From NCBI GenBank assembly GCA_022821235.1, contig JAJEEA010000337.1:308-64307 (forward strand): a DNA stretch of 64,000 nt, given 5' to 3'. The DNA is from Vicinamibacteria bacterium (GTDB lineage Bacteria; Acidobacteriota; Vicinamibacteria; Vicinamibacterales; UBA8438). The translations under genes were made by a program, and so were the position numbers. Within the stretch, counting starts at the first letter, position 1; every line of letters starts with the position of its first letter. Positions 1 through 50,385 of this stretch are shown one piece after another. The notes beneath the pieces are model-generated. The model did not search any database and was not told the DNA's origin. It saw only the letters and a list, made by a program, of their open reading frames with translations.

Positions 1-266
1 AACCCGATGTGGTTGATGCCCGTTCCCAGGCTGCCGCCGCTCGTCGGCTGGGGCACGAACACGAGCTCCACGCCCCCGCAGGTCGCGGCGTCGTCGCGGT
101 CGGCCACCGGCTCGCACCCCATGTACTCCGAGTACCAGTCCACGCCCATGGCCGGGCTGGGCGCCGTGATATGGACATGATGGTAGTCGGCGGCCAAGGC
201 GGCGGTGGGCGCCAGCGCCAGCGCGGCGGCGACGATGGTTGCGAGAGCGGTCTGCTTGCGTTCCAT
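1..266 (-). CDS. VOC/glyoxalase-fold protein, N-terminal part only (gene runs off the window start)
   Basis: Minus-strand ATG at 264-266 gives MERKQTALATIVAAALALAPTAALAADYHHVHITAPSPAMGVDWYSEYMGCEPV...GTGINHIG. It has a signal peptide and HHVH/NHIG(F) VOC-type motifs. It is absent from the ORF track because no stop lies inside the window. Confidence 0.5.
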   Translation of the reverse strand, partial: MERKQTALATIVAAALALAPTAALAADYHHVHITAPSPAMGVDWYSEYMGCEPVADRDDAATCGGVELVFVPQPTSGGSLGTGINHIG

Positions 267-371
267 GGCGCCCGTGCTCCTCTCCGCGTGTTGGGGGCTG
301 ATCCGGCGGCGGCGTTCGCCCCCCGGTATCGGTGGCAGGGTAGCACAGTACCGATCGTGTAGGATGCGGAG

Positions 372-2810
372 TTGTCGATCGCTACGTGGGCTGCTTTTCG
401 GCGCGCAACTCCCCGCGCGGCGCTGGTGCTGCTCCTGCTGCCACTTTCCCCGACCGGGGGCGTTCTTGCGCAGGCGCAGGATGATCGCTCGCAGGCCTCT
501 CCCGCGGCGGAAGGGCCCCGACCGGGCCAGGTTGCGCCGGGCGCCCTGACTGCCACCGCAATCGATCCCGCGCTCGCCGCGGCCATCGACGGGCCCCCGC
601 CGCCGGTCGGGCCGGCGGTGATGAACCGGGACGCGGACGGGCGGACGACGGTCCGCGCCATCCGGCTCGCGACTGGCATCCGGCTGGACGGGGTGCTCGA
701 CGAGGAGGTGTACGGCGCGGTCCCGCCGATCACGGACTTCCTGCAACAGGTGCCGGTGGAGGGCGCGCCCGCGACCGAGCGGACCGAAGCCTGGATCATG
801 TTCGACGGGGAGAACGTGTACGTGTCGGCGCGCGTGCACGACTCGGCGCCCGAGAGCGAATGGGTCGCCAACGAGATGCGGCGCGATACCAACCAGTTGC
901 GGCAGAACGACACGTTCACGGTCTTCTTCGACACGTTCTACGACCGCCGCAACGGCTTCAACTTCTACACGAACCCGCTCGGCGCGCGAGCGGACCAGCA
1001 GTTCACGAACGAAGGCAATCCCAACGGCGACTGGAACCCCGTGTGGGACGTGCGCACGGGACGTTTCGACGGCGGCTGGACGGCGGAGATGGAGATACCG
1101 TTCAAGACGCTCCGCTACCGCGGCGGGGGCGCCCAGCTCTGGGGCGTGCAGTTGCGCCGCGGCGTGCGCCGCAAGAACGAGTGGACGTACCTGACGCGGA
1201 TCCCGATCTCGGCCGGCGGCGGGCGCGGAGCGGCCGGCATCTTCCGCGTCTCGGCGGGTGCGACGCTGGTGGGCATCGAGCCTCCGGAAGCCAGCCGGCT
1301 GGTCGAGATCAAGCCGTACGCCATCGGCGGCGTGACGACCGACCGGCACTCCATTCCCATCCAGGAGAACGACGGCAGCGGCGCATTCGGCGCCGACGTG
1401 AAGATGGGCATCACGGAGAACCTGACGGCAGACTTCACCTACAACACGGACTTCGCCCAGGTCGAGGTGGACGAGCAGCAGGTCAACCTGACCCGCTTCA
1501 GCCTCTTCTTTCCGGAGAAGCGGGAGTTCTTCCTCGAGGGCCGGGGCATCTTCGGGTTCGCGCGCGGCGGGGTGGGCGCCGGCAGCCCCGGCGAGCCGAG
1601 CGACGCGCCGACGCTGTTCTACAGCCGGCGGATTGGCCTGGAGGGCGACCCCAACAACGTGCAGGTGGTGGTGCCGATCCACGGCGGCGCGCGGATGACG
1701 GGCAAGGCGGGCGCCTTCGACGTCGGCGCGCTCAGCATCCAGACGGAAGAATCGCCCGAGGCAGGTACGGCGTCGACGAACTTCACGGTGCTGCGTCTGC
1801 GGCGGGACATCCTGCGGCGCAGCAGCGTGGGGGGCATCTTCACCAACCGGTCCGTATCGCAGGTCGGGCCGGGCTCCAGCCAGGCGTACGGCGTGGACGG
1901 CACGTTCTCCTTCTTCGAGAACCTCGACTTCGTGACCTACTACGCGCGCACCCGGACGCCGCTGGCCGACGGCCGGGACGCCAGCTACCAGGGCCGCTTC
2001 GACTACGGCGGCGACCGCTACGGCCTGACCGTCAACCACATCGCGGTCGAGGAGAACTTCCTGCCGGAGATCGGCTTCATGACGCGCGACAACTACCGCC
2101 GCACCAACGTGTCCGGCCGTTTCAGCCCGCGACCGCAGGGCAGCGCGCTGGTGCGCCGCTATGCGCTCGAAGCCGGCGTCGACTACTTCACCACCGCCGA
2201 CCGGGGTTTCGTCGAGACGCGCGAGCGGACCGTGGACTTCTCGACGGAGTTCCACAACAGCGACCAGTTCGAGGTGAGCCTGACCAACTCGTACGAGCTG
2301 CTGCAGGAGCCGTTCCGGATCTCGAAGGACGTGGTGCTGCCGGTCGGCGGCTACGGCTTCACGGCGGGCACGGTCTCCTACACGCTGGGCGGGCAGCACC
2401 GCGCCAGCGGCGGGCTGGCGTTCACGGCCGGCACCTTCTGGAGCGGCGACATCCGCACGCTGGAGTACCGCCAGGGCCGCATCAACGTGTCGAACCAGTT
2501 TTCCGTGGAGCCGACCATCTCGTTCAACGACATCGACCTGCCGGAGGGCGACTTCAATACCACGCTGGTCAGCACCCGCTTCAACTTCGCGTTCAACCCG
2601 CGCATGTTCTTCAGCGGACTGGTGCAGTACAACTCGAGCAACGACCGCTGGAGCAACAATCTCCGGCTGCGGTGGGAATACAGCCCGGGCAGCGAGCTGT
2701 TCGTGGTATACACCGAGGAGCGCGACGTCGGCGGGCTGAGGCCGATCCGTGTCGACGGCCTGCGCAACCGCGGCTTCGTCGTCAAGCTGAACCGCCTGTT
2801 CCGCTTATAG
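372..2810 (+). CDS. secreted CBM9-like / DUF5916 family protein
   Basis: 812 aa with an N-terminal signal (LLLLPLSPTGGVLAQAQD). The stretch IRLDGVLDEEVYGAVPPITDF..EAWIMFDGENVYVSARVHD..NDTFTVFFDTFYDRRNGFNFYTNPLGARADQ..WNPVWDV..GGWTAEMEIPFKTLRY matches the CBM9+DUF5916 pattern as I remember it. The start is TTG at 372, so the exact start is uncertain. Confidence 0.75.
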   Translation: MSIATWAAFRRATPRAALVLLLLPLSPTGGVLAQAQDDRSQASPAAEGPRPGQVAPGALTATAIDPALAAAIDGPPPPVGPAVMNRDADGRTTVRAIRLATGIRLDGVLDEEVYGAVPPITDFLQQVPVEGAPATERTEAWIMFDGENVYVSARVHDSAPESEWVANEMRRDTNQLRQNDTFTVFFDTFYDRRNGFNFYTNPLGARADQQFTNEGNPNGDWNPVWDVRTGRFDGGWTAEMEIPFKTLRYRGGGAQLWGVQLRRGVRRKNEWTYLTRIPISAGGGRGAAGIFRVSAGATLVGIEPPEASRLVEIKPYAIGGVTTDRHSIPIQENDGSGAFGADVKMGITENLTADFTYNTDFAQVEVDEQQVNLTRFSLFFPEKREFFLEGRGIFGFARGGVGAGSPGEPSDAPTLFYSRRIGLEGDPNNVQVVVPIHGGARMTGKAGAFDVGALSIQTEESPEAGTASTNFTVLRLRRDILRRSSVGGIFTNRSVSQVGPGSSQAYGVDGTFSFFENLDFVTYYARTRTPLADGRDASYQGRFDYGGDRYGLTVNHIAVEENFLPEIGFMTRDNYRRTNVSGRFSPRPQGSALVRRYALEAGVDYFTTADRGFVETRERTVDFSTEFHNSDQFEVSLTNSYELLQEPFRISKDVVLPVGGYGFTAGTVSYTLGGQHRASGGLAFTAGTFWSGDIRTLEYRQGRINVSNQFSVEPTISFNDIDLPEGDFNTTLVSTRFNFAFNPRMFFSGLVQYNSSNDRWSNNLRLRWEYSPGSELFVVYTEERDVGGLRPIRVDGLRNRGFVVKLNRLFRL

Positions 2811-2822
2811 CGGGGGAAGAAG

Positions 2823-3704
2823 ATGCTGACAAGCACGACATGGTTTCGTCTCGGTTTACTGGTGGGTCTGCCGGCCGTGTTGCTCACCGTCGCAACGCGC
2901 GCGCAGCGGGGCGACGTCGACTGGGATGCGGTGGAGATCGCCGCGCACCACGTGCGCGGGACCGTGCACTACGTGTCGGGACGCGGCGGCCACGTCGGCC
3001 TCTCCGTGGGCGACGACGGCGTCATCATGGTCGACGACCAGTTCGCCCCGCTGACCGATCGCATCCTGGCGGCGATCCGCGGCATCTCGAACGGCGACAT
3101 CCGCTTCCTCATCAACATCCACGTCCACGGCGACCACGTGGGCGGCAACGAGAACCTCGGCCGCATGGGCATTCTCATCCTGGCCCAGGACCGCGTGCGC
3201 CTGCGGCTGGCGGAGACCATGCCGGAGGTGGCGCTGCCGGCCTTCACCTACAGCGAGGACGTGACGATCCACCTGAACGGCGAGGAGGTGCACATCTTCC
3301 CCGTGCCCGCCTCGCACACGGACGGCGACAGCGTCATCCACTTCCGGGGCTCCGACGTGATGGTGGTCGGCGACGTGTTCCGCACGGTCGCGTTCCCGGT
3401 GATCGACCGCAACAACGGCGGGAGCCTGCCCGGCACCATCGAGACGCTGGGCATCATCGCCGGCCGCGCCGGCCCAGATACGCTCATCCTGCCCGGCCAC
3501 GGCGAGGTCTCGACGCGCGAGGACGTCATGGAGTTTCGCGACATGGTTATCGACGTCTCCGGCCGCGTGGCGGAGCTGGTGGAGCAGGGGATGACCTACG
3601 AGCAGGTAGCGGCCGCCGGGACCACCGCGTCGTACGAGGGCAAGTGGGGCGACCCCACCCGCTTCCTGACCGCGGTGTACGCGGAGCTGAGCGGGGCGGA
3701 CTAA
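2823..3704 (+). CDS. MBL-fold metallo-hydrolase (secreted)
   Basis: Contains the H-x-H-x-D-H motif NIHVHGDHVGGN, a later HTDGD and GHG, a signal peptide, and an SD-like GGGGGAAG upstream. Confidence 0.85.
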   Translation: MLTSTTWFRLGLLVGLPAVLLTVATRAQRGDVDWDAVEIAAHHVRGTVHYVSGRGGHVGLSVGDDGVIMVDDQFAPLTDRILAAIRGISNGDIRFLINIHVHGDHVGGNENLGRMGILILAQDRVRLRLAETMPEVALPAFTYSEDVTIHLNGEEVHIFPVPASHTDGDSVIHFRGSDVMVVGDVFRTVAFPVIDRNNGGSLPGTIETLGIIAGRAGPDTLILPGHGEVSTREDVMEFRDMVIDVSGRVAELVEQGMTYEQVAAAGTTASYEGKWGDPTRFLTAVYAELSGAD

Positions 3705-3728
3705 GCATCGTCGGCGCGATTCGAGTCC

Positions 3729-4802
3729 ATGGGGCGCGCAAGCACAGCCGCGGCGGGCTGCGTCGCCGTGGCGCTCGTGGCAACGGCCCCTGCGGCGCGG
3801 CCGCGGGCGCAAGAGGCAGAGCCGGCGCCCACCTTCGAGCGCGACGTTTCCTGGCCGAAGCCGCTGCCCGACAACTGGCGCCTCGGCATCGTCTGGGCCG
3901 TTGCGGTCGACAGCCGCGACCACGTCTGGGTGCTGCACGCGGCCGACCGCTATCTCGAAGAAATTGCCGACGCCGGCAAGCTTCCGGCGCCGCCGGTGGT
4001 CGAATTCGACCCCGAAGGCAATCTGGTGCAGGCCTGGGGCGGCCGCGATCAGGGCCGGCCGTGGGTGTACAGCATGGAGCCCCACCCCTCCGTCGGCGAG
4101 CACGGCCTGCACGTCGACCACCGCGACAACGTCTGGGTAACCGGCGGCGGGCACCTGGCGCTCAAGTTCACGCGCGCCGGCGAGTTCCTGCTCCAGATCG
4201 GCCGCCTGAACCGCACCGCAGGGAGCAACCACACGCAATACCTGGGGAATCCGTCCGGCGTGGACGTCGATCCGGAGACCAACGAGGTCTACATTGCGGA
4301 CGGCTACCTCAACAAGCGCGTGATCGTGTTCGACGGCGATACCGGTGAGTACGTGCGGCACTGGGGCCGCTACGGCGCGCCGCCGGACGATGCATTCGAA
4401 GCCGGGGAGCGGTTTCCGCGCTTCGGTCATGCCGCGCAGCTATCCGCCGACGGCCTGGTCTACGTCTCCGACCGTGAGCACGGCAGCATCCACGTGCACC
4501 GGCGCGACGGCAGCTTCGTGACCGAGGTCGAGGTGCCGGTGAAGGTGAATTCCGTGGCGTTCTCCGCCGATCCCGGCCAACGCTATCTCTACGCGGGCGG
4601 CATGCGCACAGGCGCCAACGGCCGCTACGACCTGGAGGTGGACGGACGGATCGTGATCCTCCGCCGCAGCGACCTGCAGGTGCTGGGTTCCTTCGAAAGT
4701 GCCGGCCAGCACTTCTTCGACGTCGATTCCCGGGGCAACATCTACACCTGCGGCCGCTTCATGCCCGAGAAGTTCGTCCCGGTCGTGCCGCCGCCCCGCT
4801 AG
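3729..4802 (+). CDS. NHL-repeat / peptidyl-hydroxyglycine-lyase-like beta-propeller protein (secreted)
   Basis: Signal peptide plus repeated propeller-blade motifs (VAVDSRDHVWVL, LHVDHRDNVWVTG, GVDVDPETNEVYIADGYLNKRVIVFD, LSADGLVYVSDREHGSIHV, FDVDSRGNIYT). Confidence 0.65.
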   Translation: MGRASTAAAGCVAVALVATAPAARPRAQEAEPAPTFERDVSWPKPLPDNWRLGIVWAVAVDSRDHVWVLHAADRYLEEIADAGKLPAPPVVEFDPEGNLVQAWGGRDQGRPWVYSMEPHPSVGEHGLHVDHRDNVWVTGGGHLALKFTRAGEFLLQIGRLNRTAGSNHTQYLGNPSGVDVDPETNEVYIADGYLNKRVIVFDGDTGEYVRHWGRYGAPPDDAFEAGERFPRFGHAAQLSADGLVYVSDREHGSIHVHRRDGSFVTEVEVPVKVNSVAFSADPGQRYLYAGGMRTGANGRYDLEVDGRIVILRRSDLQVLGSFESAGQHFFDVDSRGNIYTCGRFMPEKFVPVVPPPR

Positions 4803-4873: not shown

Positions 4874-5161
4874 ATGCGATTCGTGAGCGTTCGCGAGCTG
4901 CGGGCTCGTTCGGCGGCCGTGTGGAAGACCCTGGCGCAGGAGAAGGAGCTTGTCGTCACGTCCAACGGCAAGCCGATCGCACTGCTGTCCGCGACGTCGG
5001 AAGAGCGGCTCGAAGAATCGCTGGACGCTGTGCGCCGCGCCCGCGCCCAGGCGGCCGTCGCGGCGATTCAGGACGCTTCCCTGCAGTCCGGGACTCACCG
5101 GATAACGCTGGACAGGATCAACGCTGAAATCGACGCCGTCCGCCGAGACCGCGCCAGATGA
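4874..5161 (+). CDS. type II antitoxin, Phd/YefM-like
   Basis: MRFVSVRELRARSAAVWKTLAQEKELVVTSNGKPIALLSA...; the stop overlaps the PIN start (ATGA at 5158-5161). I chose the internal ATG at 4874 of ORF 4826..5161. Confidence 0.7.
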   Translation: MRFVSVRELRARSAAVWKTLAQEKELVVTSNGKPIALLSATSEERLEESLDAVRRARAQAAVAAIQDASLQSGTHRITLDRINAEIDAVRRDRAR

Positions 5162-5583
5162 ACGTCGTGCTCGACACGAACGTCCTGGTGTCTGGTCTCA
5201 TCACTCCGTTCGGTCCGGCGGCGGATATCATGCGCTTGCTGGCGGCCGGCGCCATTCGGGCCTGCTACGACGCCCGCATACTGGGGGAGTACCGCGAGGT
5301 GCTCGCGCGCCTAGCGTTCGGATTCGCCGCTGAACGGATAGAGGCGCTGCTCGACCAAATCAGGGCCGACGGCCTGCTCGTCACGGCGCGGCCCCTGGCC
5401 ACGCACCTGCCCGACCCGGACGATGAGATGTTCCTGGCAGTCGCGCTCGCGGCAGGCGCAACCTGCCTCGTGACAGGCAATCTCCGCCATTTTCCCGAGG
5501 AGAGCCGGCAAGGCCTGTCCGTTGTATCCCCGCGGCGCTTTCTCGATGTGTACGGCGACGAGTTGGCGTCTTCCGGCGCGTGA
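5158..5583 (+). CDS. PIN-domain toxin
   Basis: MNVVLDTNVLVSGLITPFGP...DPDDEMFLAVALAAGATCLVTGNLRHF shows typical PIN acidic motifs and is translationally coupled to the upstream antitoxin. Confidence 0.8.
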   Translation: MNVVLDTNVLVSGLITPFGPAADIMRLLAAGAIRACYDARILGEYREVLARLAFGFAAERIEALLDQIRADGLLVTARPLATHLPDPDDEMFLAVALAAGATCLVTGNLRHFPEESRQGLSVVSPRRFLDVYGDELASSGA

Positions 5584-7433: not shown

Positions 7434-9557
7434 TCACCGCCGCCGCACGGTTACCGGGATGCCGTTGAAGGAGGCGTTGCCGCTCAGCGTGTCCAGGAAG
7501 CGCTCGCTGGTGACGTCGTTGGCGCTCTCGCCGGCATGGTTGCTGGCGACGCGCAGTCGGACGCCGTCGCGGCCGTGGCCCCAGCCGTGGGGCAGGCTGA
7601 CAACGCCGGCCCGAACGCTGTCGGTTACCTCGACGGGCACGGTGACCGCGCCGGCCTTCGAGCGGAGCTCGGCCATGTCGCCGGTCGACAGTTGGCGCGC
7701 GGCGGCGTCTTCCGGGTGCAAGAGCAGCGTGCAGCGATGATCGCCGCGCAACAGCCGGGCGCTGTTGTGCAGCCAGGAGTTGTTGCTGCGCAACTGGCGT
7801 CTGCCAATCAGCGCCAGACGGCCGTTCGTTTCGCCGTCAGCCTCGGCCGGCAGGTGCTCGCGCGCTTCACGCACGAATTCCGCGGGGGCGGCGTCGATCT
7901 TGCCATCGCGTGTCGCAATGCGCTCGGCGATGCGGTCCGGCTGCAGCGGCCCCAGGTCGAGGCCGTGCGGGGCCTCCCGCAGCCGCGCGAGCGACAGCTT
8001 GTGCGGGCCCAGCCGCAGCAGCGGGTCGAGGATGCGTTCCGGCGTGAGCGCCTGGACGGCGCGGGAAACCGCGCGCCGCAGCGGGCGCGGCGCGAGGACG
8101 CGCCCCGCCAGCGCGCCCAGGATCTCCCAGTCGTGCCGCTGCTCCGGCGTCCGGGGCACGGCGGGCTCGACATACTTGGCCACGTTGCGGACCGCGAACA
8201 CGTTCAGCGCCAGGTCGTAGTGCCCGCGCGCCAGCGGCGGCGCGGGCGGCAGGACCACGTGCGCGTGGCGCGTCGTCTCGTTCAGGTACGGATCGATCGC
8301 GACCACGTGCTCGAGGTTGCCGAGCGCGCGATCGAGACGCGCCCCGTTCGGGGCCGACAGCACGGGATTCCCGGCGACGGTGATCATCGCGCGCGGGGAT
8401 CGCGGGCCGCCGGACTCGATCTCGTCCGCGAGCGCCGCGACCGGCAGCTCGCCGGTGAACTCCGGCAGCCGGCGGGCGCCGCCGCGCCAGCGGCCGAACG
8501 TGCCGCGCAGGCCGATCCGGGACAGGACGTCGATGGCGTCGACGGCAGGCGTCGTCAGCAGCAGTCCGCCTTCCGCGTCCATGCGGCCCGTCACCAGGTT
8601 GAGCGCCTGCAGCAGCCACACCGCCAGCGTGCCGTGGCGCTGCGTGCACAGTCCGACCCGGCCGTAGCCGGCCGCCCGTTCGGCGGCCGCGAAGTCCAGC
8701 GCCAGCCGGCGAATCGTCGGCGCCGCGACCCCGGTGCGCTGCGCGACCCGCTCGGGTGGCAGATCGCGGACCAGATCGGCAAGCGCGTCAAGGCCCTTGA
8801 CACGTCGTGCCAGCCGGCCGAGGCGCATCCGCTGCTCCTCGAAGATCACCTGCAGCCTCGCCGCGAGCAGCAGGGCGTCGGCGCCCGGCCGGATGGCGAG
8901 ATGCTCGCCGGCCGCGGCGGCGGTCTCCGTGCGCCGCGGGTCGACGACGACCACGCGTCCACCTCGCGTCCGGAGGTCGGCCAGCCGCCGCCGCATGTCC
9001 GGCGCGCTCATCAGGCTGCCGTTCGACGCCAGCGGATTCGCGCCGAAGACCAGGAAGAAGTCGGTCCGGTCGAGGTCGGGCACCGGAATCAGCGCGAAGT
9101 GCCCGAACATGCGCAGCGCGACCAGCATCTGCGGCAACTGGTCGGCGGAGCTGGCGGAGTAGATGTTTCGCGTCCGCAGTGCGCGCGTGAAGGGGAGCAG
9201 GTGCGTGATCAGCCCCAGGTTGTGGGCAACCGGATTGCCGTAGTAGACGCCGACGGCGTTGCGGCCGTGGCGCCGCCGCACGCGGACCAGTCCTTCCGCC
9301 GCGCGGTCGAGGGCCACCTCCCAGCCAACCCCGCGCCATGTGCGGCCATCGCGGATCAGCGGCGCGCGGATGCGGTCCGGGTCGTGATGCAGGTCGGCAA
9401 GCGCGGCCGCCTTCGGGCAGACGTAGCCGCGGCTGAACGGATCCTCCGGGTCTCCCCGGACCGCGTCGATGCGCTGTCCGTCGACCTCGACGAGGATGCC
9501 GCACATGGCCTCGCACAGCGGGCAGGTCGAGATGCGGGTCGTGCGTTGCGCGCTCAC
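7434..9557 (-). CDS. molybdopterin (MopB-family) oxidoreductase, formate-dehydrogenase-like
   Basis: N-terminal 4Fe-4S motif STCPLCEAMCGI...RGYVCPKAA, followed by MopB-like sequence through to ...FNGIPVTVRRR. I propose the GTG at 9557 (VSAQRTTRISTCPLC) rather than the ORF-track start at 9857. There is no in-frame TGA in this gene. Confidence 0.8.
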   Translation of the reverse strand: MSAQRTTRISTCPLCEAMCGILVEVDGQRIDAVRGDPEDPFSRGYVCPKAAALADLHHDPDRIRAPLIRDGRTWRGVGWEVALDRAAEGLVRVRRRHGRNAVGVYYGNPVAHNLGLITHLLPFTRALRTRNIYSASSADQLPQMLVALRMFGHFALIPVPDLDRTDFFLVFGANPLASNGSLMSAPDMRRRLADLRTRGGRVVVVDPRRTETAAAAGEHLAIRPGADALLLAARLQVIFEEQRMRLGRLARRVKGLDALADLVRDLPPERVAQRTGVAAPTIRRLALDFAAAERAAGYGRVGLCTQRHGTLAVWLLQALNLVTGRMDAEGGLLLTTPAVDAIDVLSRIGLRGTFGRWRGGARRLPEFTGELPVAALADEIESGGPRSPRAMITVAGNPVLSAPNGARLDRALGNLEHVVAIDPYLNETTRHAHVVLPPAPPLARGHYDLALNVFAVRNVAKYVEPAVPRTPEQRHDWEILGALAGRVLAPRPLRRAVSRAVQALTPERILDPLLRLGPHKLSLARLREAPHGLDLGPLQPDRIAERIATRDGKIDAAPAEFVREAREHLPAEADGETNGRLALIGRRQLRSNNSWLHNSARLLRGDHRCTLLLHPEDAAARQLSTGDMAELRSKAGAVTVPVEVTDSVRAGVVSLPHGWGHGRDGVRLRVASNHAGESANDVTSERFLDTLSGNASFNGIPVTVRRR

Positions 9558-9627
9558 TTGGAGATCCGCCGCCGGGAACGGTATCGTAGCCGTAGCCGGA
9601 TTCCAATCGCGGCACGGGGGGGAACGT

Positions 9628-10863
9628 ATGCGAAGCAGCGCGTGGACGGTGAGTTGGCGGGTCCTGGCGCCCGGGATCCTGCTGGCGGCGCTGGGAGTGG
9701 GCGGATGTGCGGGCGCGGACGCGCCAGCGCCGGCGCCCGCGACCGAGTCGGAAGCCGTGGCTGCGCCGGAAGGCAATGCCGTGCTCGGAGCCCACGAAAT
9801 CGTGCCCGATCCCGGGGCGACGTTCACCGACGAGCGCGGGTTGACCGTCGAGGGCATGGGGATCGACTTTGCGGCGCGCCGCTATCCGGCGTCCACGGAC
9901 TTCCCGACCGGACCGGCGCTGGGCGAGCGGCTGCCGGAGTTCACCCTGCCGAACCAGCACGGCGAGCCGGTCGACTTCCATGCCGACCGGGGCGGCCAGG
10001 GGGCCGTAGTCGTCTTCTACCGCTCGGCCGTATGGTGACCGTACTGCCAGACGCAGCTGGTCGAGCTGCAGGGGCAACTGGAAGACTTCGAGGCGGCGGG
10101 GTTCAGGATCTACGGCGTCAGCTACGACTCGGTTGAGGGGCTGGCGGCGTTCGCCGACCAGCACGGCATCGAGTACGACCTGCTGGCCGACGACGACTCG
10201 GCGGTGATCACGCAATTCGGCATCCTCAACACCCTGATCGAGCCGGACGGGCCGCTGGCCGAGCAGTTCTACGGGCTCCCGTTTCCCGGCACGTACGTCG
10301 TGGACGGAAACGGCGTGGTGACCGAGAAGTTCTTCAACAAGCACTACGCCACGCGGACGTCGGCGGGCACGATTCTCGACTCGGCCCTGGGGCGCGCGCT
10401 GCGCCACGAGGAGGCCCCCGCGGCGGCCCATGGCGCCCCGCAGGTCGGTTTCACCGCCTTCCTGTCGGATCCGCAGCTCACGCTCGAGGTGGCGAGCACG
10501 CTCAACGTGCGCATCGAGATGGAGGAGGGCTACCACGTCTACGCGGAGCCGTTGCCCGACGACTACTACCCGACCACGGTGCGGCTGGAGCCCGTCAGCG
10601 GCCTGGAGATCGGTGAGGCCGTCTATCCGCCGACGACGCCGATGCGCTTCGATGCTCTGGACGTGACGTTGAACGTCTACGAAGGGTCTGCCGACATCGC
10701 GATTCCGGTCACGGCGCTGGCCGAGCTCGTCCAGGCGGGCGGTGAGACGGTCGATCTGGACGTCGTCGTGGACTACCAGGTGTGCAGCGACACGGTGTGC
10801 TATCTGCCGGAGGAGGCCCGGCTCTCGCTCTCCGCGCCCATCTCGGGTTTGCTGGGCCGCTAG
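9628..10863 (+). CDS. predicted selenoprotein: lipoprotein-type Prx/Trx-like redoxin (W-U-P-Y-C) fused to a DsbD-N-terminal-like domain; UGA(Sec) at 10036-10038
   Basis: ORFs 9469..10038 and 10204..10863 are in the same frame. The 55 codons between them have no stop and read PYCQTQLVELQGQLEDFEAAGFRIYGVSYDSVEGLAAFADQHGIEYDLLADDDSAV, the canonical AhpC/TSA-redoxin continuation. The TGA replaces the first Cys of FYRxxWCPYC. The start ATG at 9628 follows a G7 SD and gives a lipobox-like signal, LAALGVGGC. The C-terminal part (GYHVYA...VVVDYQVCSDTVCYLP) resembles the DsbD-N/ScsB type. Confidence 0.75.
10053..10069 (+). promoter_or_regulatory. putative bacterial SECIS hairpin
   Basis: GCAGCU-GGUCG-AGCUGC: a 6-bp perfect stem and 5-nt G/U-containing loop, starting 15 nt after the in-frame UGA. 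Confidence 0.55.
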
Positions 10864-10884
10864 TCACGAGGAGTCGGCGCCTGT

Positions 10885-12384
10885 CTACGAGGCCGACTCC
10901 CGCGCGCCGCGGGCGCGCCGCAGGAGCCACGGCAGGACGAGCGCCGCGGCGGCGAGCAGCAGCAGCGCGCCCGACAGCGGCCGCGTGAACAGCACCGTCA
11001 CGTCGCCTTCCGCGATGGCCAGCGCCCGCCGCAATTGCTGCTCGGCGAGCGGGCCGAGAATCAGCCCAATCACGGCCGGCGCCACCGGCACGTCGAGCCG
11101 CCGCATGGCGAAGCCGACGAGGCCGATGCCGTACATCAGCCCGACGTCGAACAGCGACCCGTTGAGGCTGTAGGTGCCGACGGTGGCGAACAGCACGATG
11201 CCGGCCGCGAGCAGCGGCCGCGGGATGGCCAGCAGCCGCGCCCACAGCGGCGCCAGCGGCAGATTCAGGACGAGCAGCATCACGTTGCCGGCGTAGAGGC
11301 TCGCGATCAACCCCCACACGAGCTCGGGCTGCGAGGTGAAGAGCAGCGGCCCCGGCTGCAGGTTGTGCTGCTGGAACGCCGCGAGCATGATGGCGGCCGT
11401 CGCCGACGTCGGCAGGCCGAGCGTGAGCAGCGGCACGAGCACGCCGGCCGCCGCCGCGTTGTTGGCCGCCTCGGGTCCGGCCACGCCTTCGATCGCGCCG
11501 CGTCCGAACTCCTCCGGGTGGCGCGAGAGCTTCTTCTCCATCCAGTAGGAGAGGAAGGTCGGGATCTCCGCGCCGCCGATGGGCAGCGCCCCCAGAGGAA
11601 AACCCACGCCCGCGCCGCGCAGCCAGGGCTTCCAGGATCGCCGCAGGTCGGTGCGCGTCATCCACGTCCAGCCGCCGACGCGCGCCGCCGAGGCGCCGTC
11701 CGCCCGAGGTGCCGCCGCCAGCAGCAGCACCTCGCCGACGGCGAACAGCCCGATCACGACGACCACGACGTCGATGCCGTCGAGCAGATGGGGGATGCCG
11801 AACGTGTAGCGCGCCTGACCGGTCTGCAGGTCGATGCCGACCAGCCCCAGCGCGAGGCCGAGGAACAGGCTGAGCAGGCCGCGCAGCGGGGAGGCGCCCA
11901 GCACCGAGGAGATCGTCGCGAAGGCGACCAGGATCAGCGCGAAGTACTCGGCCGGGCCGAAGCGCAGGGCAACCTCGGCCAGCGCGGGCGCGGCGACGGT
12001 CAGCCCCACGACGCCGAGCGTGCCGGCCACGAACGAACCGATCGCGGCCGTCGCCAGCGCGGCGGATGCGCGTCCGGCGCGCGCCATCCGATGCCCGTCG
12101 ATGGCGGTGATCATGGCGCCGCTCTCGCCGGGCGTGTTCATGAGGATCGACGTGGTGGAGCCGCCGTACATGGCGCCGGCGTAGACACCCGCGAACATGA
12201 TGAATGCACCGACCGGTCCGAGCTGGAACGTCACCGGCAGCAACAGGGCGACGGTCAGTGCCGGACCGATGCCGGGCAGGATGCCGACAATGGTCCCCAG
12301 CACAACGCCGACGAACGCCCACAGCAGGTTGCCGTCCTGCAGGACGACCGCGAATCCCTGGAGCAAGGCCGAGGTCGGTTCCAT
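10885..12384 (-). CDS. tctA: tripartite tricarboxylate transporter large permease TctA
   Basis: 499 aa; [53 protein letters not shown] is a typical TctA N-terminus, and the protein is polytopic and hydrophobic throughout. Confidence 0.85.
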
Positions 12385-14338: not shown

Positions 14339-15678
14339 TGTTGCAGCGAGCGCTCGCGCTGGCGACGGGCGCCGGGTCGCTGGCGCTTGCGGCGGCGCTG
14401 CTGGCGCAGCCCGGGCCGGCCCCTGCCGGCGCCGTCGTCCTGATCGGCGGCCGAGTCATCGACGGCGGGGGAGGCCCGCCGCTCGAGCGGGCCGTGCTGC
14501 TCGTTCTCGACGGGCGGATTCGCGCGGTCGGCCAGGTGGGCGACGTCCCGATCCCGGACGGGGTCGCCCGCGTCGACGTCAGCGGCAAGACCATCATCCC
14601 CGGTCTCATCACGGCGCACGCGCATCTCAACGACGGCGACCCGGCGCAGCCGCTGCGCGACCAGTTGCTGGCGCAACTGCGCACTTATGCCGCGTTCGGC
14701 GTCACGACCGTGCACACCCTCGGCGACGGCCGCTCGGCCGCCCACCGGGCGCACGCGCCGCGGCTGCCGTACCCCTGGCAGGTGGCTGAGGAGAGCGTAA
14801 GGGTGCGCGATGAGCAGGCGGACGGCGACCTGGTCGACCGCGCGCGGCTGTTCCCATCAGGTCCGAACGTGGTCGGCGCCACCGCGGCCGAGGCGCGCGA
14901 GGGCGTCGATCAGATCGCGGAGCTGGGGGTCGACGTCATCAAGACGCGGCTCGACGACCGGCCGGAAGACATGACGCCGGCGGTCTACCGCGCGCTGATC
15001 GACCAGGCGCACCGGCGCGGACTGCGGGTGGCGGCGCACGCCGTCACCCTGGAAGACGCCAGTGGGCTGGCCGAGGCCGGCGTGGACGCCGTCGTGCACA
15101 GCGTGCGTGACCGCGACGTCGACGCGGCGCTGATCGCCGCGCTGGCGAGCCGCGACGTCGGCTACGTGCCGACGCTGACGCGGACGCTGTCACTGTTCCT
15201 GTACGCGACGACCCCGGCGTTCTTCGGCGACCCCTTCTTTCTGCGCGGCGGCGACGCCTACCGGGCGGAGATGGAACGGATTCGGGATCCGGAGCTCCAG
15301 GCGCGGGTGCGCGGCGGCGACCAGGCCGCGGCTGCGCGGAAGGTGCTGGCGCAGGCCCAACGCAACCTGAAGCTGCTGGCCGGCGGTGGTGTGACCATCG
15401 GCATGGGCACCGACAGCGGCACGCAGTTGGGCCGTTGGCAGGGGTATTTCGAGCACGTTGAGCTGGAGCTGATGGTCGAGGCCGGCCTGACGCCGCTGCA
15501 GGCGCTCGTGGCGGCAACGGGCAACGCCGCGCGCGTCATGGGGCTCCGCGAGCTGGGCACGCTGGAGCCCGGCAACCACGCCGACTTCGTCGTGCTGGAC
15601 GCCAATCCGCTGGTCGACATCCGCAACACCCGGCGGATCGACTCCGTCTGGATCGCCGGCCGCAGGCTCGCGGAGTAG
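14338..15678 (+). CDS. amidohydrolase-family protein (secreted)
   Basis: [24 protein letters not shown], then VLIGGRVIDGGGGPPLERAVLLVLDGRIRAVG...IPGLITAHAHL...GTDSG...ADFVVLDANPL. The start overlaps the upstream stop (TGATG). Confidence 0.8.
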   Translation: MLQRALALATGAGSLALAAALLAQPGPAPAGAVVLIGGRVIDGGGGPPLERAVLLVLDGRIRAVGQVGDVPIPDGVARVDVSGKTIIPGLITAHAHLNDGDPAQPLRDQLLAQLRTYAAFGVTTVHTLGDGRSAAHRAHAPRLPYPWQVAEESVRVRDEQADGDLVDRARLFPSGPNVVGATAAEAREGVDQIAELGVDVIKTRLDDRPEDMTPAVYRALIDQAHRRGLRVAAHAVTLEDASGLAEAGVDAVVHSVRDRDVDAALIAALASRDVGYVPTLTRTLSLFLYATTPAFFGDPFFLRGGDAYRAEMERIRDPELQARVRGGDQAAAARKVLAQAQRNLKLLAGGGVTIGMGTDSGTQLGRWQGYFEHVELELMVEAGLTPLQALVAATGNAARVMGLRELGTLEPGNHADFVVLDANPLVDIRNTRRIDSVWIAGRRLAE

Positions 15679-29545: not shown

Positions 29546-29710
29546 CTCGAGGAGGCGCCGGAATCGACGTGCCGTTCCGGCGTGGCTGCGGTAGTCTACC
29601 GGGAGACGGGTCGCGCGGCGCCGGGGCCGCCGCCGGCGGTGCCCGTCGTCACCGTGAATCGCGACCGGCGGGCGACGCCGCGGACGAAGCGGCCACGCGG
29701 GAGACGGACG

Positions 29711-31684
29711 ATGTCACGACACGTGGATGTGCGCAGAGCGGTTGTTCGTACGGCGGCGGTAGCGATTCTCCTGTTCGGCGGAGCGACCGCCGGCTTCGCC
29801 CAGCACGGGGCGGCCGCCGGCGAGTGGCGGACCTACGGCGGCGACCTGGGCAGCACGCGCTACGCGCCGCTCGATCAGATCGACGCCGACAACTTCGACG
29901 ACCTCGAGGTCGAGTGGCGCTTCCGCACCACCAACCTCGGGCCGTTCCCCGACTTCAACTACCAGGCCACGCCGCTGATGGTCGACGGCGTGCTCTACGC
30001 CACCGCCGGCAGCCGCCGCAACGTCGTCGCGCTGGACGCGGCCACCGGCGAGCTGCTGTGGATCTATCGGCTCGACGAGGGCCAGCGGGGGATGAACGCC
30101 ATCCGCCGCATGTCGGGCCGCGGCGTCGCCTACTGGACCGACGGCGAGGGCGACGAGCGCATCTACCTGGTCACCATCGGCTACCAGCTCGTGGGGCTCG
30201 ACGCGCGGACGGGGCGGCCCGTGCAGGGGTTCGGCGACGACGGTATCGTCGACCTCAAGCGCGACAACGACCAGCCCATCGACCCCCTGACCGGCGAGAT
30301 CGGGTGGAACAGCGCCCCCGTCGTCGCGCGCGACGTGGTCATCGTCGGGGCCTCGCACCGCTCCGGCGGCTCGCCCCCGAGCCGCGAGAACGTCAAGGGC
30401 TACATCCGCGGCTACGACGCCCGCACCGGCGAGCGCCGGTGGATCTTCCACACCATCCCCCGGCCCGGCCAGTTCGGGCGCGACACCTGGCTGAACGACT
30501 CGGCCGTCTACACCGGGAACACCGGCGTGTGGACCAACCTGACCGTCGACGAGGAGCTCGGCATCGCCTACCTCCCCATCGAGATCCCCACCGGCGACTA
30601 CTACGGCGGCCACCGGCCCGGCGACAACCTGTTCTCGGAGAGCCTCGTGGCGGTCAACCTCGAGACGGGCGAGCGGCTCTGGCACTTCCAGTTCGTGCAC
30701 CATCCCATCTGGGACTACGACGTGCCGTGCCCGCCGATCCTCGTCGACATCACCGTCGGCGGGCGCGAGATCAAGGCGGTGGCCCAGCCCGTCAAGCAGG
30801 GATGGGTGTACGTGTTCGACCGCGTCACCGGCGAGCCGGTCTGGCCCATCGAGGAGCGGCCGGTGCCGGCGGGGAACGTCCCCGGCGAGTGGTACTCGCC
30901 CACCCAGCCGTTCCCCACCAAGCCGCCCCCGTTCGAGCGGCAGGGGTTCACCCTCGACGAGCTCATCGACTTCACCCCCGAGCTGCACGCCGAGGCCCTC
31001 GAGATCGCGTCGCGCTACCGGACCGGGCCCGTCTTCACGCCCCCCATCGTGCGCGGGCAGGACGGCCTGCTCGCGACCCTGTTCGTCCCCAACGGCGCCA
31101 ACTGGCCGGGCGGCTCGTTCGACCCCGACACCGGCATGCTCTACCTCTACTCCCCCACCCTCAACCGCGCCATCGGCCTCGTCAACGACCCCGAGCGCTC
31201 GGACATGGACTACGTCAGCGGCCGCCTGCGCCCGCCCACGGTGCGGGGGCTGCCGATGATGAAGCCGCCCTGGGGCCGCATCACCGCCATCGACCTGAAC
31301 GAAGGGGAGATCGTGTGGCAGGTCGCGCACGGCGAGACCCCCGACTTCGTGCGCAATCATCCCGCCCTGCGCGGCCTCGACATCCCGCGCACCGGCCGCA
31401 CCGGGGGCGCCGGCGGCAGCTCGGGCGGCATCGGCACCCTCACGACGAAGACCCTCGTCATCAGCGGCGAGGGCGGGACGGTCACCACGCCGTCCGGCGC
31501 GCGAGGCGCCATGCTGCGCGCCTACGACAAGGCGACGGGGGAGGAGCGCGGGGCGGTGTATCTGCCCGCCGCGCAGACCGGCTCGCCGATGACCTACATG
31601 CTGGACGGCAGGCAGTACCTCGTGCTGGCCGTCGGCGGCGGGACCTACCATGGGGAGCTCATGGCCTTCGCGCTGCCGGAGTGA
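29711..31684 (+). CDS. soluble PQQ-dependent dehydrogenase, glucose/quinate/shikimate-dehydrogenase-like
   Basis: Signal peptide, GEWRTYGGDLGSTRYAPLDQI, ATPLMVDGVLYATAG, and HFQFVHHPIWDYDVPCPPILVDI (compare mGDH HHDLWDMD). Confidence 0.85.
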   Translation: MSRHVDVRRAVVRTAAVAILLFGGATAGFAQHGAAAGEWRTYGGDLGSTRYAPLDQIDADNFDDLEVEWRFRTTNLGPFPDFNYQATPLMVDGVLYATAGSRRNVVALDAATGELLWIYRLDEGQRGMNAIRRMSGRGVAYWTDGEGDERIYLVTIGYQLVGLDARTGRPVQGFGDDGIVDLKRDNDQPIDPLTGEIGWNSAPVVARDVVIVGASHRSGGSPPSRENVKGYIRGYDARTGERRWIFHTIPRPGQFGRDTWLNDSAVYTGNTGVWTNLTVDEELGIAYLPIEIPTGDYYGGHRPGDNLFSESLVAVNLETGERLWHFQFVHHPIWDYDVPCPPILVDITVGGREIKAVAQPVKQGWVYVFDRVTGEPVWPIEERPVPAGNVPGEWYSPTQPFPTKPPPFERQGFTLDELIDFTPELHAEALEIASRYRTGPVFTPPIVRGQDGLLATLFVPNGANWPGGSFDPDTGMLYLYSPTLNRAIGLVNDPERSDMDYVSGRLRPPTVRGLPMMKPPWGRITAIDLNEGEIVWQVAHGETPDFVRNHPALRGLDIPRTGRTGGAGGSSGGIGTLTTKTLVISGEGGTVTTPSGARGAMLRAYDKATGEERGAVYLPAAQTGSPMTYMLDGRQYLVLAVGGGTYHGELMAFALPE

Positions 31685-38324: not shown

Positions 38325-38472
38325 GGAATCCTCCTGGCGGCGTTCTGTGAGTCGTTGACCGGATGATAGTCGGAGACCGAGAGGACGGACAAGATCCGTG
38401 GCCCCCCGACGATGGTAGAATGCCGTGATCGCCGTCCAGACGGGCGGGGTTGGACCACCGGGAGGGCCTGAC

Positions 38473-40899
38473 GTGGCTGACTACAAACTGCTCGGAAAGA
38501 ACTACCGGTTGCCGGACCTTCACGCCAAGGTCACCGGCCGTTCCCGCTATGCCGAGGACCATCGGGCCGAGGGCATGGTCTTCTGCAAGCTGCTCGTGAG
38601 CCCGATGCCCCACGCGCGGGTGGTGTCCATCGACACCGGCGCGGCCGAGGCCCTGCCGGGCGTCGCGGGCATCCTGACCGCGGACGACCTGCCCGAGGTC
38701 GACGCGCCGAACGAGGCGGCCCTGACCAACGAGCCGCGCTACGAGGGCGAGCCGATCCTCGCGGTGGCCGCCGTCGACGAGGAGACCGCGGCCCGCGCCA
38801 TCGAGCTCATCGACATCGACCTCCAGCCGCTGCCGTTCGTCCTCGACCCCCTCGACAGCCTCCGGCCCGGCGGGCCGAACGCCCGGACCGACGGCAACAC
38901 GATGAGGGGGCGCGAGCTGGGCGAGGTCAAGTGGACCGAGGCGGACCTCGCGGGGCTCGCGCCGGGCGAGATCCCGATGGAGGCGGAGGCCACCGACGAG
39001 TGGTCGTACGGCGACCTCGCGGCGGGGTTCGCGGACGCCGACGTGGTCATCGAGGAGCACTCGTACCACCAGTCGCTCTCGCACCAGCCGCTCGAGAGCC
39101 GCACCACGATGGCCTACTGGGAAGGCCAGAAGGTCTACGTGTACCCGTCGGTGCAGAGCACGAACCGCAGCGTCGGGCCGATGGCGCGCTGGGCCGGCGT
39201 CGAGCCGTCGAACGTGGTCCTCATCAACGAGTTCACCGGGGGCGGCTTCGGCAGCAAGGCGGCCGGCTACGTGCAGGCGCAGATCCCCATGCTGCTGTCG
39301 AAGAAGATCGGCAAGCCGGTCATGATGCGGGTGACCCGGCGCGACGAGACCTCGTTCGGCAAGGCCCGCCCCGGCATCCAGGCGCGCATCCGGCTCGGCA
39401 TGCGGCGCGACGGGCGGATCACCGCCCTCGACGTCCACGCCATCGGCGACAACGGTCCCTACGCGCGGTCCGGCGACCACATGAACCTCGGGGTCATGGG
39501 CTCGCTCGCCTATCAGCCGGTGGCCATGCGCATGCGCGGCACCGGGGTCTACACCAACACGCCGCCGCGCGCCGCCCAGCGCGCCCCCGGGGGCGAGCAG
39601 TCGATGACGATGCTGTCGCCCATCATCCAGAAGGCGGCGAAACAGCTCGGGCTCGACCAGGTCGAGGTGCTGAAGATCAACGCGCCCGAGGGGCAGGCGA
39701 CGTTCGGCGCGCCGGGCGTGGACGGCGTGCAGGGGCACGTGTCTAGCGCCTTCGCGCGCGAGGCCATCGACAAGGGGGCCGAGCTCTTCGACTGGCGCGA
39801 GCGGGTGCAGCGCAGCGGCCGGCGCAACGGTCCGAAGGTAACCGGCGTCGGCGTGGCGCTGAGCACCTTCGCGGCCGGCGCTTCGGGCGTCGACGGGCTG
39901 TTCGTCATCCGGCCCGACGGGCGCATCGCCATCCAGTCGGGCGTCGGCAACCTCGGCACGGGGTCGACCTTCGACATGATGCGCCCCATCGCCGAGGGCA
40001 TGGACGTGCCCTGGGAGAAGTGCGACGTCGCGTGGGGCGACACCAGCCGGCACTTGCCGTGGAGCTCGCTGCAGGCGGGCAGCTCGACCGCTCACGCGCA
40101 CACCCGCGCGAGCTGGGCGGCGGTGCTCGACGCGCGCCAGAAGGTGCGCGAGATCGCGGCCCGCGACCTCGGGGGCGTGCCCGACGACTACACCATCGGC
40201 GGCGAGCGCGTGTTCCGCACCGGCAACCGCTCGGTGGGCATGACCTTCGCGCGGGTGGCGCAGCGGGCCGTCGACATCGGCGGCCGCTACGACGGCCACG
40301 AGTTGCCCGAGGACATCAACGGGATGACGACGGCCGCGGCCACCGCCCTCGCCGGGCAGGGCCTGATGGGGGTCGCCCGCGACAACTTCGAGGAGGGCGG
40401 CCGGCGGATGTCGTTCGTCGCTGGCTTCGCCGAGGTCGAGGTGGACGTGGAGACCGGCGGCATCCGGCTCGTCGACTACGCGGCCGGATGCGACGCCGGC
40501 ACCATCATCCATCCCCGGACGTTCGGGGCCCAGGTCTTCGGCGGGGCCATCCAGGGCTTCTCGGTCACCCTCAGCCAGAACTGGGTGTTCGACCGGCGCT
40601 GGGGGCTGCTGGTGGCCAAGCGCTTCTACAGCAACCGCCCGCCGGGCATTCTCGACGTCCCGCACGAGCAGCCCATGAAGTGGGGCGCCGCCGACCTGCC
40701 CGACCCGTTCAACCCGCTGGGCGCCAAGGGCATCGGCGAGGCGGCGCAGGGCGCCGGCTCGGGGGCGGTGATGAACGCCATCGCCGACGCGCTCGGCCAG
40801 AACGGCGACCTCTTCCGGACGCCGGTGACCCGGGACCTGATCCTGACCCGGCTCGAGCAGGCGCCGAGCGGCCACGACCGGCTGATGGCCCACGTCTGA
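38473..40899 (+). CDS. xanthine-dehydrogenase-family molybdopterin-binding large subunit (no adjacent FeS/FAD subunits)
   Basis: Contains KVTGRSRYAEDHRAEGMVFCKLLVSP, EFTGGGFGSK and PLGAKGIGEA. The GTG at 38473 follows GGGAGGG. Confidence 0.85.
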   Translation: MADYKLLGKNYRLPDLHAKVTGRSRYAEDHRAEGMVFCKLLVSPMPHARVVSIDTGAAEALPGVAGILTADDLPEVDAPNEAALTNEPRYEGEPILAVAAVDEETAARAIELIDIDLQPLPFVLDPLDSLRPGGPNARTDGNTMRGRELGEVKWTEADLAGLAPGEIPMEAEATDEWSYGDLAAGFADADVVIEEHSYHQSLSHQPLESRTTMAYWEGQKVYVYPSVQSTNRSVGPMARWAGVEPSNVVLINEFTGGGFGSKAAGYVQAQIPMLLSKKIGKPVMMRVTRRDETSFGKARPGIQARIRLGMRRDGRITALDVHAIGDNGPYARSGDHMNLGVMGSLAYQPVAMRMRGTGVYTNTPPRAAQRAPGGEQSMTMLSPIIQKAAKQLGLDQVEVLKINAPEGQATFGAPGVDGVQGHVSSAFAREAIDKGAELFDWRERVQRSGRRNGPKVTGVGVALSTFAAGASGVDGLFVIRPDGRIAIQSGVGNLGTGSTFDMMRPIAEGMDVPWEKCDVAWGDTSRHLPWSSLQAGSSTAHAHTRASWAAVLDARQKVREIAARDLGGVPDDYTIGGERVFRTGNRSVGMTFARVAQRAVDIGGRYDGHELPEDINGMTTAAATALAGQGLMGVARDNFEEGGRRMSFVAGFAEVEVDVETGGIRLVDYAAGCDAGTIIHPRTFGAQVFGGAIQGFSVTLSQNWVFDRRWGLLVAKRFYSNRPPGILDVPHEQPMKWGAADLPDPFNPLGAKGIGEAAQGAGSGAVMNAIADALGQNGDLFRTPVTRDLILTRLEQAPSGHDRLMAHV

Positions 40900-48447: not shown

Positions 48448-48533
48448 GATCCCTGGTCGGACGCGTCGCGGTTTCGGACGGGAACGGGTAGAATCTCCGC
48501 GATCCCGCTACGGCAACCCTCGGAGGTGCAGCG

Positions 48534-50381: not shown

Positions 50382-50385
<4 letters not shown>

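Follow-up and report, generated by a model that had tools for sequence, protein, structure and literature searches.

The locus at positions 9628-10863 of a 64,000-nucleotide (nt) stretch of DNA from a Vicinamibacteria bacterium (assembly GCA_022821235.1, contig JAJEEA010000337.1; the whole stretch is referred to as the window) raises the question of whether two neighboring open reading frames (ORFs) on the forward strand, 9469..10038 and 10204..10863, represent two genes or the two parts of a single gene that is interrupted by an in-frame TGA codon. A prediction made earlier from the sequence alone (the original prediction) favored the single gene and proposed a selenoprotein of about 411 residues, in which selenocysteine (Sec, U) takes the place of the first Cys of a W-C-P-Y-C motif and a Sec-containing redoxin domain is joined to a domain resembling the N-terminal domains of DsbD and ScsB. 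Our computational analysis leads to the same answer: the region 9628-10863 is very probably one gene that encodes a 411-residue selenoprotein, with the UGA at 10036 decoded as Sec.

The reading frame itself gives the first part of this answer. Translation agrees with the original prediction that both ORFs lie in an identical frame and that the 55 codons between them (10039-10203) are open, as they contain no stop at all. Read from the ATG at 9628 to the TAG at 10861-10863, the frame comprises 411 codons, and its sole internal stop is the TGA at 10036-10038 (codon 137) in the context …VVVFYRSAVW-TGA-PYCQTQLVELQ…. In a six-frame scan of the 64 kb, in which segments with a GC content at third codon positions (GC3) > 0.85 were taken as coding-like, this TGA was unique in having 40 stop-free coding-like codons on each side in frame, and the same scan of orthologous loci recovered essentially the Sec site alone. 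Furthermore, the profile of the AhpC-TSA domain runs across the TGA, so that a “gene” read from the GTG at 10204 would open partway through a domain and lack the active site.

Protein databases present a different view of this family. A protein search yielded 120 relatives, nearly all of them 230-286 residues long and with matches confined to 53-65% of the query at its C-terminal end. Many of them begin with MTQLVELQ…, a few codons past the position of the TGA. The DNA of the corresponding loci was compared in 11 Vicinamibacterales genomes (77-90% identity), all of which have the TGA and a conserved upstream frame, and in 80 metagenome loci (33-58% identity), 79 of which were counted with the site. 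The orthologue is present in the closed Vicinamibacterales chromosomes OY762226.1, OZ244900.1, OZ253664.1 and OY760136.1. Including the window, this gives 91 family sequences with identities of 33-90%, and the codon at the Sec site is TGA in 91/91 of them, never TAA, TAG, TGC or TGT. The family motif across these loci is RS[AV]xW-U-[PSG]-[YFP]-C, and the upstream part of the protein (FPTGPxxGERLPDFxLPxQxG…RSAVW) is conserved in loci down to 33% identity. A genuine two-gene arrangement in orthologues, which the original prediction had named as evidence to the contrary, was seen at no locus, and the downstream “gene” would open inside the AhpC-TSA domain.

Relatives that have Cys at the Sec position were sought in an exhaustive search of cluster representatives, which returned 2,691 relatives; start positions were judged on the best 150 of these. 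Of these 150, about 120 are cut short at the UGA, and most of the set begin immediately past the site, at residue 1-3 of their own sequence. Another 18 extend upstream, and all 18 show the architecture of a signal sequence, a peroxiredoxin-like (Prx-like) domain and a DsbD_N domain. The Sec column is occupied by Cys in 15 of them (for example P0165, RSADWCPYCKTQLVE), by Ser in two (P0154, and P0251 at locus L099:1145) and by Trp in one (P0176, TGG-type, WWPFC); P0116 has Cys there as well. The site of the window protein reads W-[U]-P-Y-C with Sec in the column of the first Cys, giving U-x-x-C, just as the original prediction had it. Counted in this way, predicted Sec forms far exceed Cys forms in the DsbD_N-fused branch. 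One relative, P0134, is a tandem duplicate, with copy 1 cut short at its UGA and W-S-S-Y-C in copy 2.

The second part of the answer comes from the RNA. A Sec insertion sequence (SECIS)-like hairpin, GCAGCU-GGUCG-AGCUGC, had been proposed about 15 nt downstream of the TGA, and it was located there (Table 1), starting with the 15th nt after the TGA (a gap of 14 nt) and having G and U in its loop. The hairpin is present in the minimum free energy (MFE) fold, and the 17-mer alone reaches -8.9 kcal/mol, a value that was matched by 3/200 shuffles. The model for bacterial SECIS elements (bSECIS) specifies a loop of 3-9 nt, a stem of 4-16 bp, a distance of 16-37 nt between UGA and loop and an MFE <= -7.5 kcal/mol, and it requires the loop to have G at position 1 or 2 and then G or U (PMC13188914). 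With a 5-nt loop (GGUCG), 6 bp, a UGA-to-loop spacing of 20 nt and -8.9 kcal/mol, the window hairpin lies within every one of these constraints. It resembles the bSECIS of E. coli fdhF, which is likewise a hairpin in the coding region soon after the UGA with a small apical loop that opens with G and then G or U. The fdhF loop contains GGUC, like that of the window, and its stem has a bulged U, whereas the window stem is a plain helix of 6-7 bp without a bulge.

Conservation of this structure was analyzed in an alignment of 85 distinct 75-nt segments (A2). The six hairpin pairs are formed in 98.6% of the cells, and 0/500 shuffles reach the observed values; when the 3′ arm is slid as a control, pairing falls to 10-40%, and RNAalifold recovers the identical helix independently. 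Compensatory changes occur at 3/6 pairs: G-C is replaced by C-G at pair 30-46 in seven sequences, where a Gln to Glu replacement is offset by a synonymous change from ACG to ACC, by A-U at pair 33-43 in eight sequences (and G-U in six), and C-G by U-A at pair 34-42 in one sequence. In addition, codon choice in the arms is narrow (Thr ACG 62/66, Glu GAG 73/74, Gln CAG 68/76), compared with a codon entropy of 1.6-1.9 bits for the four-fold codons flanking the arms (Ser, Ala, Val, Pro and Arg), and the first Gln beyond the stem favors CAA. Judged by the compensatory changes and by this suppression of synonymous variation in the arm codons, selection acts on the hairpin as an RNA structure. An additional C-G pair reduces the loop to 3 nt (GUG or GGN) in one clade.

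The hairpin appears tied to the UGA, because it decays in Cys and Ser forms whose peptide here is identical or almost identical. Five distinct forms of this kind with a QLVELQ/QLVEIQ-type peptide retain 2-5 of the six pairs, and their 17-mers have folding energies of 0 to -1.9 kcal/mol, the exception being one Ser form with -5.0 kcal/mol. The Ser form at locus L099 keeps 5/6 pairs, possibly because Sec was lost recently. A covariance model was built from A2, with the window site in the training set and the Sec locus L094, a 5.76-Mb genome contig of the P0016 organism, outside it. The model scores 86 bits at the window site, 80 bits at L094 and 31-40 bits for the Cys and Ser forms, and the next best site in the window receives 12.7 bits. 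This search, which had been proposed as a check of the locus, thus bears out the hairpin.

Several other candidates and searches gave nothing comparable. A hairpin that encloses the UGA (GUAUGG-UGA-CCGUAC), although present in the MFE fold, was rejected, as it is 71.8% paired compared with 71.0% in shuffles. A lower stem that would lengthen the SECIS (GCC…GGC in the window) was not recovered family-wide by RNAalifold. A covariance-model hit of 21.8 bits within a BCCT transporter gene of L094 is an out-of-frame GCCGTCTGGTGA look-alike and was attributed to chance. Scanning of the whole window with Rfam at gathering thresholds gave zero hits, and a permissive Rfam scan of 9980-10160 gave one meaningless small RNA hit only; no Rfam model recognizes the element.

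The third line of evidence concerns the machinery for Sec insertion and the use of TGA in general. Among the family loci, ARAGORN detected a tRNA-Sec in L048, a 71.5-kb marine metagenome contig (Ga0056115_1000041). There, in the region 22-3816, selA, selB and tRNA-Sec (Table 1) are located directly upstream of a Prx-like/DsbD_N gene (TGA at ~2998) on one strand, which looks like a gene string of the Sec machinery and its client. A tblastn search of 670 kb of loci with an approximate E. coli SelD query gave no match and is a weak negative. The phylum Acidobacteria has been recorded as a user of selenoproteins (PMC1794560). The original prediction had also stated that TGA is an ordinary stop elsewhere in the window, for example at 5581-5583; this holds, since ORF 5158..5583 ends there and TGA terminates 19/35 other coding-like segments of the window, including genes with Pfam profiles matched from end to end.

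A side observation was made on L094, where two adjoining ORFs of the PF24696 “UGSC” family (14968-15507) represent one UGSC-family selenoprotein gene split at the TGA 15247-15249, with the site …EALAD-U-GSCTTCS…. The Prx-like/DsbD_N gene is 4 kb upstream of it, and a 538-residue AhpC-TSA protein is encoded next to it. This is a second split selenoprotein, located in a small redox cluster.

Two results weigh against the decoding of UGA 10036 as Sec. No selA, selB, selD or tRNA-Sec was found within the 64-kb window by the tRNA scan and the Pfam scan of 30 segments. Moreover, the hairpin is short (6 bp), and the stability of its 40- and 81-nt contexts is ordinary (z = -0.26 and -1.0), so that the support for it comes from comparative data and not from thermodynamics. 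The lack of such genes in the window would suit a UGA that is read through by other means, by a near-cognate Trp or Cys tRNA or after reassignment of the codon, as would the one relative with Trp (P0176) and the two with Ser at the position. Such a reading is nevertheless very unlikely, because TGA terminates genes with complete Pfam profiles in the same window, the position corresponds to the catalytic Cys in a CxxC motif, the UGA comes with a bSECIS-compatible hairpin that decays where the UGA is absent, and one family member is linked to selA-selB-selC.

A real stop at 10036, giving a 136-residue N-terminal product and a separate downstream protein from the GTG at 10204 or another internal start, is what ORF callers report here, as they do for almost every family entry in the databases. 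We regard this as extremely unlikely: the 55 codons between the ORFs are conserved as protein, the split would strip the active site from the larger piece, the starts given in databases shift with the first ATG or GTG after the TGA (MTQLVELQ…, MELQ…, MEDF…), and the full-length Cys forms unite both halves. A single base change would also be enough to produce a TGA from TGC or TGT in a pseudogene or by an assembly error. With the identical TGA in 91 independent assemblies at 33-90% protein identity and purifying selection on both sides of it, the probability of this is close to nil. Thus, a single gene with a Sec codon is the reading on which the following description is based. Its features are listed in Table 1.

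Table 1. Positions of the predicted selenoprotein gene and its elements in the window, and of Sec machinery genes at locus L048.
Feature	Position	Strand	Evidence or description
Predicted complete selenoprotein coding sequence, 411 codons + TAG, Sec codon 137	9628..10863	+	single frame; Pfam domains on both sides of and across the TGA; read-through frame kept in 11 Vicinamibacterales genomes and 79 metagenome loci
Predicted signal peptide with lipobox-like end …LAALGVGG-C27 (Cys27 at 9706-9708)	9628..9708	+	hydrophobicity and lipobox pattern match
AhpC/TSA domain (peroxiredoxin-fold, thioredoxin-like), residues 99-233, TGA inside	9922..10326	+	PF00578, E 3.2e-30, profile 2-123 of 124
Redox motif U137-P-Y-C140, predicted Sec codon TGA 10036-10038	10036..10047	+	TGA in 91/91; Cys at Sec column in 15/18 full-length relatives
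SECIS-like hairpin: 5′ arm GCAGCU 10053-10058, loop GGUCG 10059-10063, 3′ arm AGCUGC 10064-10069	10053..10069	+	folding, covariation, covariance model
DsbD_N domain (nDsbD/ScsBα-like immunoglobulin fold), residues 289-399	10492..10824	+	PF11412, E 6.3e-13, 49.2 bits vs cut-off 25, profile 19-115 of 119
Putative redox Cys pair C386-x4-C391 (YQVCSDTVCY) of the DsbD_N domain	10783..10800	+	both columns >= 90% conserved, alignment A3
selA, cut by locus end	L048:22-714		E 6e-78
selB	L048:474-2630		GTP_EFTU + Beta-barrel_SelB + SelB-wing_3
tRNA-Sec, anticodon TCA	L048:2641-2734		ARAGORN

The domains named in the original prediction, a Sec-redoxin and a DsbD-N/ScsB-like domain, correspond to the AhpC-TSA and DsbD_N domains that Pfam assigns to the 411 residues; no others were found in this Pfam search, and the transmembrane β and thioredoxin-like γ domains of DsbD are absent. 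The nearest solved sequences to the AhpC/TSA domain are BCP/PrxQ, ResA and CcmG. An AlphaFold2 (AF2) model of the natural Cys form P0128 (predicted local distance difference test score, pLDDT, 94.4; predicted template modeling score, pTM, 0.90) matches BcpB, AhpE and PrxQ with a target-normalized template modeling (TM) score of up to 0.84. Although BCP/PrxQ and AhpE are the nearest solved structures by sequence and fold, their signature P-x3-T/S-x2-C is missing in the window protein, the site of which reads F-Y-R-S-A-V-W-U-P-Y-C. In an alignment to the BCP 2cx3, the peroxidatic Cys pairs with C140, and U137 takes the Thr/Ser position. The lack of the signature together with this placement of Sec suggests a thioredoxin-type U-x-x-C site with Sec as the N-terminal, attacking residue. 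All curated NCBIfam peroxiredoxin models score far under their cut-offs (best NF006960, 61 bits vs 140), and no family-specific NCBIfam model reached its cut-off. SelL-related proteins (NF040769) share the Prx fold and a U/C-x-x-U/C motif, but with 32.8 bits against a cut-off of 120 the window protein is not a member.

The C-terminal domain was assigned by its profile and by its predicted fold. An AF2 model of window residues 273-411 (pLDDT 95.3) has the N-terminal domains of Neisseria meningitidis DsbD (6dps, E 4.8e-6) and of ScsB (6c29, E 3.3e-4) as its top two fold matches in the PDB. A phmmer search of the PDB with the C-terminal domain alone gave no significant match, the sequence identity to solved structures being too low for detection by this method. 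Common to this domain and the α domains of DsbD and ScsB are the Pfam assignment, the immunoglobulin-like fold and a Cys pair just before a conserved Pro. The consensus of the pair in alignment A3 is [YF]Q[AV]C-x4-C[YF]xP, and C386/C391 is, on this conservation, a putative redox pair. The spacing C-x4-C differs from that of E. coli nDsbD, where the pair is C103-x5-C109. A further difference is that DsbD and ScsB are membrane proteins with β and γ domains, whereas the DsbD_N domain described here forms the C-terminal part of a protein that is soluble or lipid-anchored.

The N-terminus, MRSSAWTVSWRVLAPGILLAALGVGG-C27, resembles a lipoprotein signal peptide in a pattern match, and a pattern script found similar ends in orthologues (…LAALAAAGC or …LGAGGC). 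Cys27 is a probable lipidation site, and the protein is probably exported and lipid-anchored, as far as such patterns allow this to be predicted. Most of the clade with the U-P-Y-C motif, to which the window belongs, has a signal peptide. It is lacking in a marine clade of ~30 members with the motif W-U-P-P-C-[WR] (L043-L087, e.g. L052:2785-3801), the N-termini of which are short (MxxERDxxGFDAPAPLGHP…). The occurrence of a DsbD_N-type domain in an apparently cytoplasmic marine protein is unexpected.

By its domain, motif and hairpin, the window protein is a member of a selenoprotein family that is already known. A Prx-like thiol:disulfide oxidoreductase (PF00578, UxxC) was predicted by Kryukov and Gladyshev in 2004 (as listed in PMC13188914), and the family was named “Prx-like 1” in the Global Ocean Sampling (GOS) study, with 225 Sec vs 2,740 Cys homologues (Zhang and Gladyshev 2008, PMC2398784). 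In the “#Prx-like 1” block of Dataset S1 of that study (PMC2398784), the string RSAVWUPPC has 13 occurrences, and RSADWUPYC-type reads are present as well. Examples are JCVI_READ_1947008 (…FYRSAVWUPPCWTQLGELRD…), which extends into the DsbD_N part, and JCVI_READ_900765 (…HRSADWUPYCKAQLVELQ…). Since reads of the same subfamily were contained in this dataset in 2008, the selenoprotein itself is not new. Descriptions of Prx-like 1 share PF00578, U-x-x-C and a downstream hairpin with the window protein, but they omit its C-terminal DsbD_N domain and its signal peptide. Moreover, Cys forms are far more numerous in Prx-like 1 overall, whereas the fused subfamily shows the reverse, with Sec dominant.

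The original prediction had suggested that such a domain fusion was undescribed with Sec. This appears to hold for the fusion, as distinct from the family. The section on domain fusions in the GOS paper does not mention a Sec-redoxin/DsbD_N fusion (PMC2398784), the sole DsbD-related fusion listed in a 2026 review is a rhodanese/DsbD fusion-like protein (PMC13188914), and a full-text literature search for selenocysteine together with DsbD and peroxiredoxin-like gave nothing relevant. The DsbD_N fusion thus appears to be undescribed in the searchable literature.

What could such a protein do? By the presumed standard bacterial route, SelB·GTP·Sec-tRNA(Sec) would bind the 17-nt hairpin and deliver Sec at the UGA, and after export and lipidation the mature envelope lipoprotein would be a fused donor-acceptor pair of two redox domains. 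This proposal is made because the α domains of DsbD and ScsB exchange electrons with thioredoxin-fold partners. The C386/C391 pair would accept electrons from a membrane or soluble reductant and then reduce the Se-S bond of U137-C140, and the selenolate would serve as the nucleophile that reduces an oxidized envelope substrate, which may be a disulfide, a sulfenic acid or a peroxide. Binding by SelB, export with lipidation, the direction in which electrons flow and the nature of the substrate are all inferred. By analogy with known systems, the likely function is a relay in the cell envelope, in which selenol/thiol-disulfide exchange links the two fused domains. In Caulobacter, ScsB keeps PrxL reduced, and also PprX via TlpA (Cho et al. 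2012, PMC3322552), where PrxL is an exported/periplasmic Prx-like protein without peroxidase activity (PMC3322552). In the routes ScsB to PrxL and ScsB to TlpA to PprX, a DsbD_N-type domain likewise feeds an exported Prx-fold protein, and PrxL, like the window protein, lacks the canonical Prx residues, a likeness of features. The Caulobacter partners are separate polypeptides that use Cys, whereas the window protein is fused and is predicted to use Sec.

Evidence unfavorable to such a relay comes from the large marine clade without a signal peptide, on account of which an envelope role cannot cover the whole family, and from the gene neighborhoods: clustering of the ORFs within ±7 kb at the 91 loci gave no CcdA/DsbD, sel gene or other neighbor conserved across lineages, neighbor sharing being confined to the closely related Vicinamibacterales set. 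The same selenoprotein could also follow another redox logic, which we consider rather doubtful. The U-x-x-C domain might act in the manner of DsbD γ and pass electrons from a CcdA-type membrane protein to DsbD_N, which would reduce external thioredoxin-fold clients. In DsbD, electrons reach the α domain from a CxxC domain of thioredoxin fold, and both directions thus have a precedent (PMC3322552), but no CcdA or DsbD gene is among the conserved neighbors. Alternatively, the protein might be a true peroxidase with a peroxidatic Sec. Its fold is nearest to the BCP/PrxQ peroxidases, and an envelope peroxiredoxin fed by ScsB exists (PMC3322552). This is opposed by the missing canonical motif and the alignment of C140, with U137 in the Thr/Ser position, to the peroxidatic Cys of 2cx3, by the scores of the peroxiredoxin models far under their cut-offs, and by the absence of peroxidase activity in the ScsB client PrxL.

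Beyond the donor-acceptor relay in this one protein, we tentatively consider it possible that the DsbD_N-fused branch constitutes a distinct, undescribed class of self-contained two-center relays (U-x-x-C + C-x4-C) that almost always use Sec, with one form, an envelope lipoprotein or secreted protein, in soil Acidobacteriota and relatives and another, which has no signal peptide, in abundant marine bacteria. The branch would then rank among the few bacterial enzyme types that have Sec instead of Cys as the default, and one that is invisible in current annotation with gene callers starting just past the UGA. Essentially all public protein entries of the subfamily are truncated N-terminally and miss the active site, so surveys at the protein level miss how abundant it is, how its domains are arranged and that it depends on Sec. 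The fusion of a Sec redoxin with a DsbD-N/ScsBα domain may also provide a “Rosetta-stone” hint to the reductant of the Prx-like selenoproteins. For the source genome, two mis-called ORFs would become one enzyme, and the Vicinamibacterales acidobacterium from which it derives would have the selenocysteine trait.

The surroundings of the gene add some minor observations. The gene is divergent from a molybdoenzyme without an in-frame TGA, as had been noted before: the neighbor at 7434..~9557 (-) encodes a molybdopterin oxidoreductase that includes an Fe4S4 domain, and its frame has no internal stop. On the other side, a 9-bp inverted repeat with a 13-nt loop (GGAGTCGGC … GCCGACTCC, 10870-10900) lies between the selenoprotein gene and the convergent TctA gene (10885-12384, -), the stop codon of which it overlaps; it is terminator-like and has no T run. 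Elsewhere in the window, three successive coding-like segments in one frame (363-2810, 2811-3704 and 3705-4802) are separated by single TAG or TAA stops, and same-frame segments split by single stops also occur at 15765-16811/16812-18446 (-) and 26475-26906/26907-28685 (-). These are probably tightly packed genes. Finally, the 64 kb are rich in periplasmic or redox enzymes (29546-31684, 45706-47694, 38419-40899, 50382-52946 and 48492-49253), the redox set of the window comprising two PQQ-dependent dehydrogenases, two xanthine-dehydrogenase-type molybdenum enzymes, a sulfite-oxidase-type Mo domain and the molybdopterin oxidoreductase at 7434-9557.

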